Shown here: positions 38,947 to 41,227 of the stretch, in pieces
Numbering within the stretch: the stretch's first letter is position 1
How the letters are laid out: every line of letters begins with the position of its first letter
Translations under genes and position numbers: made by a program
Notes under the pieces: generated by a model
The model's database searches: none
What the model was told of the DNA's origin: nothing
What the model saw: the letters and a program-made list of their open reading frames with translations, nothing else
From: Cyclobacteriaceae bacterium
GTDB lineage: Bacteria > Bacteroidota > Bacteroidia > Cytophagales > Cyclobacteriaceae
Assembly: GCA_016787645.1 (NCBI GenBank)
Contig: JAEUUF010000020.1
Span: forward strand, 138,062-202,061
Direction of reading: 5' to 3'
Length of the DNA stretch: 64,000 nucleotides

Positions 38947-40974
38947 CTAATTGATGACCTTCTCCTGGAAGTCTCCGCGGAGTGTACGATACCGCTTGCG
39001 GGCCTCCGCCGCATAAACGCTGCCGGGAAACTTGTCCAGAAAATCCCGGTATACTTCCATGGCTTTGTCCTTGTTGTGAAGGTCCTTTTCATAGATGTCG
39101 CCTTCGGTGAAGTAGGCATCATCAGCGAGGACATCCTGTCCGAATTCTTTTACGATTTTGTCAAGAAGATTCAATGCCAGGTTAAACTCACCGCGCTTGA
39201 TCCGTAGGTTCGCCTCTAGCCAGTACACATCATCTTGAATGCTATAAATGACTATGGATGGCTCCACCACCCAAACTGAATCCCTTGATTTTTTTGATTC
39301 GTCCTTTTCATTCGTCCACGCTTCAAGTTCTTTCAACTCTGCCGGTGTCATTTCGTTGCGGGGCTTTCGGGGCCAGAGGTTCTTTTGAAGCGCCTCCGTC
39401 TTGCTCATTCGAACGCGCTTTCCTGACTGGAATTGATGCAGCCGGTCAAGAGCCATATCCATTTTGTTTTGCACTAGCAGCAATTCTATTGAAGCATACT
39501 CCCTCAATGCAATCCCTGTCGTGTCGGCGGCCAGGTTCTCCTTTATGCGCATGCTGAGTTCCATCGCATCATTGGCGATTTCGCGGGTAGTCGCTTGTTT
39601 TAGGATATCCAGGTGTTCTTCGGCCAGGCGGAAATCTCCCTTGTAGTAGGAAAGTTTGGCGTTCCTGAGTTTTGCCTCGTAGCCTAACGGGGCGTCCCGC
39701 TGATTCTTTTCCACCTGGGAATACAGTAAGGTCGCTTCCCAGGGCTCTTCCTTCAGCAAGTAGATGTCACCCAACTCCAGTTTTGCTTTTGCTTTAAGGT
39801 AAGCCGGAACACGTACCTGGTTCGTCAGGGCAGTAAGTTTGGCAACCGCTGAATCCTTTTCATCGAGGTAATACGCATGAAGCAGTGCCTCATTCAAAGT
39901 GGCTTCATAACTGTTGCCGTTGTCGGGATACCGCGCGATGAAGGATTGATATTCGCGGGTAAGGTACCTGACTGAATCCGTGTTGACCGGGAATTTTCTC
40001 TTCACTTTCGCTTCGCGGGCACGGATCAGGCCAAGGCGTGCAGGTAAATAGCTGTCCGTGTTTGCATATTCCTTGATCACATAAGAATACGCACGATCCG
40101 CATTTTCATAGTCTTTATTGTTCAGGGCGATCTGTGCAATCTCAAGGGTCTTTGGACTATCCTTCTTGAATCGCTTGTCGAATGCCCTCGCCTGCAGGTA
40201 AGCTCCGTAGAAATTCTTCTGCTGCAGATTTACCCAAACGAGCAAGTCCGCATACACCTCTGAATCCGGGTACTTTTGAACTTTGTCATAAAGCATTCGC
40301 TCGAGGCTTTCGAGTTCATCCGGTTTATTCAAAAAGAGTTGAAGCAGGTTCTTGACGTAATTCAGGTTAGCAGGTGATTGCGTGATGTAGTTAAGATACT
40401 CTTCCACCATCTCGTCCCTTTTGCCTTGCTGCCGGTAGAGGTTCGCCATTTCAAGTGTGAATGCACCGGGATTGCCCATTGCCTTGCGCAGCTCCTGGAG
40501 TGTGTACACCGCATACTCCGGGAGATTCTGCGAGGCCAGGTAATCTGCAATTGATTTTGTCCGATAAACGTCGGGCAGCGTATTCTTCACCAATGACTTG
40601 AAGTATTTGTCCGCGCGTGCCAGGTCGCCACTTCTCAGGTACACCAAGCCAAGATCCACACGATAGGATGTTCGGTCTTCTACTTTGCGAATGACCCGTT
40701 CAACATAATCTTCCGCCTCCTTGTACTTTCCCAAGTCAAGCAGCAAGTTGAAGTAATTGGCATGAATGACAGGAACATTTTCAGGTGATTTGCTCAACAC
40801 CTGGTACATCGCGAGCGCCTTTTCTTTTTCGCCCTTAAGTAAATACTCGTTCGCAATCCGAATGTCCTGCTCCTGGCCGAACGCCGACGTCAAAGACATT
40901 ACCCACACCAGACAGGATAATAGTATTGTATTATGTCTTATATAAGAGTAATAATAATCGTAATGGCTGTGCAT
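38947..40974 (-). CDS. Exported tetratricopeptide repeat protein
   Basis: Multiple TPR-like helix pairs; signal peptide ending AFG-Q. Start uncertain because the first 19 or so codons overlap the origin unwinding element. Confidence 0.85.
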   Translation of the reverse strand: MHSHYDYYYSYIRHNTILLSCLVWVMSLTSAFGQEQDIRIANEYLLKGEKEKALAMYQVLSKSPENVPVIHANYFNLLLDLGKYKEAEDYVERVIRKVEDRTSYRVDLGLVYLRSGDLARADKYFKSLVKNTLPDVYRTKSIADYLASQNLPEYAVYTLQELRKAMGNPGAFTLEMANLYRQQGKRDEMVEEYLNYITQSPANLNYVKNLLQLFLNKPDELESLERMLYDKVQKYPDSEVYADLLVWVNLQQKNFYGAYLQARAFDKRFKKDSPKTLEIAQIALNNKDYENADRAYSYVIKEYANTDSYLPARLGLIRAREAKVKRKFPVNTDSVRYLTREYQSFIARYPDNGNSYEATLNEALLHAYYLDEKDSAVAKLTALTNQVRVPAYLKAKAKLELGDIYLLKEEPWEATLLYSQVEKNQRDAPLGYEAKLRNAKLSYYKGDFRLAEEHLDILKQATTREIANDAMELSMRIKENLAADTTGIALREYASIELLLVQNKMDMALDRLHQFQSGKRVRMSKTEALQKNLWPRKPRNEMTPAELKELEAWTNEKDESKKSRDSVWVVEPSIVIYSIQDDVYWLEANLRIKRGEFNLALNLLDKIVKEFGQDVLADDAYFTEGDIYEKDLHNKDKAMEVYRDFLDKFPGSVYAAEARKRYRTLRGDFQEKVIN

Positions 40975-41227
40975 TTGTGGATAAGCGAGTCAAGATAAGA
41001 ATTGTCTAAACCTTGTGGGGTTCTTGTTTATAAGATTGGTCCGATTTGAGTCGCAAAATGGGGATGTGACGGGTATTCCACATAACGCCCTGGTGTGAAT
41101 GGCAACGTATACACAGTGTGGTGGTTGTTAGATCCTTGGGGTATAATGTGTGTAACCAGCGGGATTCATAAGTAAGTTGACCGGAATCAGCCTTAAGTGG
41201 AGGAAAGGTCGAGTTATCCACAAGTTA
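40916..41227. other. oriC: Probable chromosomal replication origin (oriC)
   Basis: Perfect DnaA boxes at 40976-40984 (TGTGGATAA) and 41214-41222 (TTATCCACA). One-mismatch boxes vs TTWTNCACA at 41025-41033, 41074-41082, 41107-41115 and 41147-41155. Tandem box + GCC + TAA trio repeats + AT-rich tract at 40916-40984. mnmG and two parS sites nearby. Confidence 0.85.

Follow-up and report, generated by a model that had tools for sequence, protein, structure and literature searches.

Where does replication of the chromosome begin in a bacterium that has no cluster of DnaA boxes near dnaA or dnaN? The question is raised by a gap of about 330 bases between the genes for a Big_5 Ig-like lipoprotein and a TPR-repeat protein. 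The gap lies in a 64 kb stretch of DNA, referred to here as the window (C26:138062-202061, C26 being one of the 28 contigs of a draft genome of 4.02 Mb and 51% G+C). The relatives of its mnmG gene belong to the Bacteroidota, order Cytophagales, near Ohtaekwangia and metagenome-assembled genomes labelled "Cyclobacteriaceae". A preliminary description of the window had taken the gap for the chromosomal origin, and this reading was supported on three counts: the cumulative GC skew has its minimum at the site, neither dnaA nor dnaN is accompanied by a rival box cluster, and an unwinding module is conserved at the site throughout the order. Positions 40914-41222 of the window are very probably the chromosomal oriC of this Cytophagales bacterium.

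The gap is distinguished by its DnaA boxes. All six boxes of the preliminary description were found where it had placed them, two perfect boxes bracketing four weaker ones with an AT-rich tract on the left (Table 1). The four weaker boxes had been called single-mismatch boxes, which holds true against the degenerate form TTWTNCACA; against TTATCCACA itself, however, they have two mismatches. No other perfect copy of TTATCCACA is present in the window, and among the 32 copies in the 4.02 Mb genome the sole pair less than 400 bp apart is the one in this gap. By the box definition of the preliminary description, 6 matches were counted in 312 bp (0.49 expected), a unique genome-wide maximum. When up to two mismatches to TTATCCACA were allowed, 7 matches were counted in 330 bp (0.93 expected). 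The cluster was found to be the densest of the whole draft genome under three box definitions. Four other genomic places with 7-8 two-mismatch boxes were considered and rejected, as they lie inside coding sequence and contain no perfect box.

The left end of the cluster has the structure of an unwinding module. Two tandem boxes, box 1 and box 2, share one base and are therefore set in an 8-bp register. Read on the minus strand from 40984 down to 40941, the module consists of TTATCCACA, AAATGCACA, a G/C cluster (GCC) and eight triplets resembling DnaA-trios (Table 1). In 6 of the 8 triplets the central base is T, which corresponds to a central A on the opposite strand. The AT-rich tract of the preliminary description proved to be real, with 80% A+T in 40914-40963, a value matched or exceeded by only 0.01% of the 50-bp windows of the genome. 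It begins within about 12 nt of box 1.

This arrangement can be compared with the basal unwinding system of bacterial origins, which has a conserved box (at most 2 mismatches), often followed by a weaker tandem second box, and a spacer no longer than 16 nt, with a peak at 10-13, leading to at least 3 trios of the form 3'-NAN-5' (PMC8287927). The search program published for this system presupposes that the boxes are separated by up to 3 bp (PMC8287927). In the window, box 1 is perfect and box 2 is weaker, the spacer measures 11 nt and 6 of the 8 triplets fit; the one-base overlap between the boxes is atypical. Several features are shared with Bacillus subtilis (boxes 6 and 7, DnaA-trios and AT-rich element). 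In both cases a tandem pair is found whose upstream box is nearer to the consensus, a short G/C spacer follows, the first trio begins 11 nt past the conserved box, and the repeated triplets, which on the trio strand have A as their central base, lead into an AT tract. Three differences were noted, however: the boxes in the window overlap by one base, the trios are mostly 3'-TAA/TAT-5' instead of 3'-GAT-5', and the origin is not beside dnaA. The ACA end of the box faces the AT tract, an orientation shared by R1 and the unwinding element in E. coli and by box 7 and the trios in B. subtilis.

Based on this anatomy, we infer a mechanism in which DnaA would bind the two perfect end boxes and the weaker boxes between them. 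The tandem boxes 1 and 2, pointing toward the adjacent G/C cluster, the trio-like run and the AT tract, would direct an oligomer of ATP-DnaA that extends from the pair along one strand of the trio-like run. The oligomer would open the AT-rich element at 40914-40964, the helicase would then be loaded, and forks would depart in both directions as the origin fires.

The position of the site in the genome was examined through GC skew, which amounts to about 13-23 G-C per kb. All large contigs are unidirectional except C26 and C6, and C26 is the only one with a switch from minus to plus. The preliminary description had suggested a skew check; the cumulative GC-skew minimum of C26 was found at C26:178970, equivalent to window position 40909 and hence at the site. 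In a two-segment change-point fit on the same contig, skew turns from -15.0 per kb to +13.2 per kb at window 40939. As expected of a DnaA-dependent oriC, the site combines a box density above background and an adjoining AT-rich element with a minus-to-plus skew switch. On C6, the cumulative skew flattens between about 115 and 155 kb, reaches its maximum near 142 kb and declines beyond 155 kb, and this region is probably the replication terminus. A chromosome with one origin and one terminus is expected to have one such minimum and one such maximum within its contigs. The flip in skew is not explained by genes changing strand, since minus-strand genes flank the site on either side and gene-strand bias is near nil. 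Genome-wide, the leading strand was found to carry 53% of the long open reading frames, which makes this bias useless as an origin test. AT, RY and MK disparity curves on C26 have no extreme at the site; GC skew alone has one.

The preliminary description had held the origin to be unlinked from dnaA, dnaN and parAB, and this was found to be correct. The dnaA, dnaN and parB genes all lie outside the window on other contigs, namely C25 (at 37.6 kb), C15 (at 544-545 kb) and C1 (at 369 kb), each with unidirectional skew. Contig ends place dnaA at least about 124 kb away, and in four long or complete related assemblies 0.56-1.36 Mb separate dnaA from the equivalent site. The site adjoins neither dnaA nor dnaN and is not of the dnaA-linked (dnaA-dnaN) type. 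A better cluster beside dnaA had been named as grounds for abandoning the reading; no box cluster was found near dnaA or dnaN. Moreover, the only two sites of the genome within 2 mismatches of the parS consensus (45617 and 61623) are both in the window, the first of them accompanied by a weaker partner (Table 1).

Further evidence came from relatives. In total, 80 mnmG loci were sampled across Cytophagales, including Algoriphagus, Cyclobacterium, Lunatimonas, Litoribacter, Rhodocytophaga, Fulvivirga, Arcicella, Emticicia, Telluribacter, Marinoscillum, Ekhidna and Reichenbachiella, and the gap was analysed in 69 relatives. The gene order mnmG, methyltransferase, Big_5 lipoprotein, gap and TPR gene is kept in the loci checked. 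In nearly all of these relatives, among loci that extend far enough, no part of the 18 kb locus has a better DnaA-box cluster than this gap, 2.5-3.0 kb past mnmG; in the window the boxes are likewise 2.5 kb downstream of mnmG. Local skew within these loci is dominated by single genes and hence was not used. A DNA-level search of the gap in 40 relatives gave short matches only, around box 1 and the AT tract, and conservation was therefore established through synteny. An unbiased count of 8-mers in the gap returned TATCCACA as the most enriched word, present in 53/69 loci where 3.7 were expected. It was followed by its neighbours, by the variant boxes TATCAACA and TATTCACA, and by words of the TATATATA type, which are enriched in relatives at this site. 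TATAAACA is enriched in the gap as well (23/69 loci, 2.2 expected), as are the far-box words TAACTTGT and GATAACTT.

A core module was found to be common to 61 of 70 loci. On the mnmG strand it consists of TTATCCACA, then (A/T)ATCCACA overlapping by one base, 3-4 G/C bases, a period-3 run with the consensus C-TAA-TAA-TAA, and an AT-rich tract. At the position of box 2 relatives have (A/T)ATCCACA or AATGCACA. In the period-3 run, T peaks at each third base. Counted in the best phase, NTN reaches 4.11, whereas shuffled sequence gives 3.68 +/- 0.09, and the signal is above that of all 500 shuffles; the loci are interrelated, so the shuffle test overstates independence. Beyond the order, the tandem 17-mer TTATCCACAWATCCACA (at most 1 mismatch) was detected in 34 of the 121 Bacteroidota genomes sampled, and 32 of these 34 have a single copy. 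The reversed control was detected in 1 of 121.

The equivalent site was also placed within longer related sequences. The complete Marinoscillum genome CP121337 has a clean V-shaped skew with its minimum 15 kb from the syntenic site, and dnaA is 0.56 Mb away. In the chromosome CP058703, coarse sampling gave two arms with a minimum 29 kb from the site, and dnaA lies 1.36 Mb away in the middle of the negative-skew arm. A steady positive arm begins close to the site in the Ekhidna chromosome OZ271834 (dnaA 1.17 Mb away). In the 5.9 Mb contig CBDETD01 the skew minimum is 93 kb from the site and dnaA is 0.99 Mb away. JBBCII01, from the window's own genus, has a shallow valley with a minimum 88 kb from the site, and its dnaA is on another contig. 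In 4 of 5 related stretches of 400 kb, the syntenic site ranks first or joint first among the box clusters, the exception being CP058703.

Several observations weigh against placing the origin in this gap. The box count is modest, with two perfect boxes and the remainder weak, and in CP058703 the equivalent site scores only 2 (one perfect box), which several places in 400 kb equal. For three related assemblies, the 400 kb sampled has its skew minimum in a broad flat valley, at a distance of 88-170 kb from the site. In the window itself, the roughly 95% support interval of the switch is 12 kb wide (38.9-50.9 kb), and a near-equal second skew minimum lies near 48.4 kb; both the wide interval and the second dip arise because a large minus-strand gene lies there. 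Of the 47 long open reading frames on the right-hand side of the site, only 14 are co-directional with the presumed fork, most being head-on. With 28 contigs, moreover, a second element may sit hidden in a gap of the assembly.

Sequencing depth was considered as well. Bioreactor and wastewater metagenomes contain DNA identical to that of this genome, and depth, taken as assembler word depth with noise of about 10%, was compared at four places in four metagenome runs (X1, X2, X4 and X6, in this order throughout). It was 29.4, 21.8, 84 and 56.8 at the site; 30.3-31.7, 21.4, 92.8 and 55.8 at 21-41 kb to its left; about 26, about 20, 83.2 and 50.4 at C6:145 kb near the skew maximum; and 24.8, 17-20, 73.9 and 46.2 at the dnaA locus. 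The ratio of origin-proximal depth to that of the presumed terminus is 1.06-1.13, and to that of the dnaA locus 1.14-1.22, so that the noise equals the signal. The differences have the direction that an origin would give. However, the origin-proximal excess is no more than 6-22%, depth varies by up to 10% between neighbouring contigs, and the dnaA locus has less depth than the presumed terminus, which leaves depth uninformative about the site.

Three other explanations of the site were considered. The cluster could be a DnaA-controlled promoter, or a titrating or reactivating site of the datA/DARS kind, serving the TPR gene or the mnmG operon, while the origin is elsewhere. The boxes do cover sequence upstream of the TPR gene as well as its probable start, and some of the phylum-wide matches to the tandem 17-mer have no AT tract after them. 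In Pseudomonas aeruginosa, DnaA is reported to regulate gidAB-parAB transcription at boxes upstream of gidA (PMC13438810). This explanation is nevertheless improbable: the assembly's sole minus-to-plus skew switch falls at the site, the module of box, spacer, trios and AT tract found there is oriented as in known unwinding systems, and no other box cluster was found in the genome, dnaA and dnaN included. A regulatory role could, moreover, coexist with origin function.

Slightly more improbable still is an origin that lies within the 12 kb interval of the skew switch but outside the gap, for example in the stretch bounded by the parS pair (45.6 kb) and by a divergent gene boundary close to 50.7 kb. 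The second minimum, the extent of the support interval to 50.9 kb and the parS sites themselves are in its favor. However, the stretch from 41.3 to 51 kb has neither a DnaA-box cluster nor a comparable AT tract, its one exact match to TTWTNCACA being at 50460. The skew dip at 46-48 kb coincides with one large minus-strand gene, and in relatives the conserved module sits at the TPR-side gap. Lastly, a chance cluster without function in an AT-rich intergenic gap, for which it can be said that 6 of 100 shuffles of the window have two exact boxes per 64 kb and that the four places mentioned above reach 7-8 two-mismatch boxes by chance, is effectively refuted by a cluster that is the unique genome-wide maximum, lies less than 100 bp from the C26 skew minimum and has boxes conserved in position across the order, as the distribution of TATCCACA demonstrates.

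A second matter is the left boundary of the gap, which probably has to be revised. The preliminary description had the gap start at 40916; the TPR reading frame most likely begins at an ATG at 40974-40972, within box 2, so that the AT tract would be coding. The same was found in 25 loci of the window's clade, in which an ATG lies within box 2 and ATGCACA stands where distant taxa have ATCCACA. In 25/25 of these loci the frame is open from the box-2 ATG through the AT tract into the TPR protein, and in eight further loci an ATG just past box 2 likewise reads through the tract. Because the frame is open across a stretch of 80-90% A+T in every case, the data suggest that the AT tract is translated in this clade, and the presumed unwinding element would therefore be coding there. 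The predicted products have a start rich in Tyr, Ile and Asn, followed by a normal hydrophobic core and a cleavage-type motif, MHSHYDYYYSYIRHNT-ILLSCLVWVMSLTSAFG-Q. In distant taxa, by contrast, the TPR gene starts 56-120 nt further on, past the AT tract, and its product has a short signal peptide.

A tentative proposal can be made from these comparisons, one we regard as a serious possibility but not as the probable one. The TPR start would have arisen in box 2 through a change of ATCCACA to ATGCACA, and the trio-like run and AT tract would encode a long signal-peptide n-region rich in Tyr, Ile and Asn, with origin opening and TPR expression physically coupled. Separately, the pair of boxes in 8-bp register would represent an undescribed, Bacteroidota-wide variant of the basal unwinding system. 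The order-wide module with this box register and the apparent overlap of unwinding element and coding sequence may both be noteworthy.

Origins on the mnmG side and unlinked from dnaA have already been reported in Bacteroidota, and the site adds a further case. In the Flavobacteriaceae, predictions with Ori-Finder/DoriC placed origins of Mariniflexile litorale and Algorimicrobium on the mnmG side, in agreement with GC skew, with which the position of dnaA does not agree (PMC11278836, PMC12843772). In Blattabacterium, candidate origins were described beside gidA, the older name of mnmG (PMC4009838). These origins belong to the same phylum and resemble the site in being on the mnmG/gidA side instead of the dnaA side and in agreeing with GC skew. 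They are found in Flavobacteriales, however, and in the window a methyltransferase gene and the Big_5 lipoprotein gene separate mnmG from the boxes. Nearer in descent is Cytophaga hutchinsonii, a member of Cytophagales, whose oriC was reportedly used by Xu et al. in 2012 in replicating oriC plasmids. According to DoriC 5.0, this origin has been experimentally confirmed and matches the DoriC prediction (PMC3531139).

Moreover, the layout in the window is the same as in E. coli. There, oriC (gidA-oriC-mioC) lies close to mnmG/gidA but a long way from dnaA, one end holds the unwinding element, and two inverted high-affinity boxes about 230 bp apart bracket weaker sites. E. coli belongs to another phylum, however, and its mnmG is transcribed away from the origin, whereas mnmG in the window is transcribed toward it. 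Control by Dam and SeqA as in E. coli is not indicated, with one GATC in 328 bp of the site against 1.9 expected, and a repeat scan of the gap gave no 13-mer repeats and, among direct repeats, only one 11-mer pair. Scans of the gap for Rfam families, terminators, sigma-70 promoters and repeats returned nothing except the inverted perfect boxes, which argues against a structured RNA there.

The known workings of bacterial origins are unchanged by this finding. For this uncultured bacterium of wastewater and bioreactors, the confident origin call is useful for orienting the draft, for growth-rate estimates based on coverage and for oriC shuttle plasmids. One origin locus and core module are conserved across Cytophagales, and the tandem 17-mer recurs more widely in Bacteroidota; this knowledge could improve automatic origin prediction in the phylum, where dnaA is a misleading landmark.

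The features of the site and its surroundings are collected in Table 1. The run of mnmG, methyltransferase and Big_5 genes (41228-45617, minus strand) is transcribed toward the origin and serves as the conserved synteny anchor.

Table 1. Features of the candidate origin and its neighbourhood, in window coordinates.
Feature	Position	Strand	Remarks
TPR-repeat protein gene	38947-40974	-	Pfam TPR families and start-site analysis; flanks the origin on the left; its 5' end probably extends over the unwinding element and into box 2
AT-rich tract, presumed DNA unwinding element	40914-40963		80% A+T; probably also encodes the n-region of the TPR signal peptide
DnaA-trio-like run, ATT ACG ATT ATT ATT ACT CTT ATA	40941-40964	-	Starts 11 nt after box 1
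G/C cluster, GCC	40965-40967	-	Separates the boxes from the trio-like run; most of the 61 loci have G/C at positions 1-4 past box 2
DnaA box 2, AAATGCACA	40968-40976	-	Weak, 3 mismatches; one base shared with box 1 (8-bp register)
DnaA box 1, perfect, TTATCCACA	40976-40984	-	Upstream box of the tandem pair facing the unwinding element; first box of the module in 61/70 loci
Weak box, AACCCCACA	41014-41022	-	Relatives carry better boxes here (alignment columns 255-277)
Weak box, TTATAAACA	41025-41033	-	Relatives carry better boxes here (alignment columns 255-277)
Weak box, TATTCCACA	41074-41082	+	Box scan
Weak box, GTATACACA	41107-41115	+	Box scan
Weak box, TTACACACA	41147-41155	-	Box scan
Far perfect DnaA box	41214-41222	+	Marks the far end of the origin, in inverted orientation to box 1; 5 nt after the Big_5 stop codon
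Big_5 Ig-like lipoprotein gene	41228-42856	-	Pfam match; last gene of the run mnmG, methyltransferase, lipoprotein
Methyltransferase gene	42853-43740	-	Pfam match
mnmG	43740-45617	-	Pfam match
parS-like site, TGTTTCACGTGGAACA	45617-45632		At most 2 mismatches to the parS consensus; distance to the boxes 4.4 kb
Weaker parS-like partner, TGTTCCACGTGGAACT	45655-45670		38 bp from the first site, across the ybeY-mnmG junction
Second near-consensus parS-like site	61623-61638		20.4 kb from the boxes

Box 1 and the far perfect box form a perfect inverted repeat of 10 nt with 229 nt between its arms. The far box was also found to belong to a conserved 16-mer, TTATCCACAAGTTATC (41214-41229), which reaches into the Big_5 stop codon. 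The 16-mer is kept in 10/10 aligned close relatives, its AGTTATC extension included.

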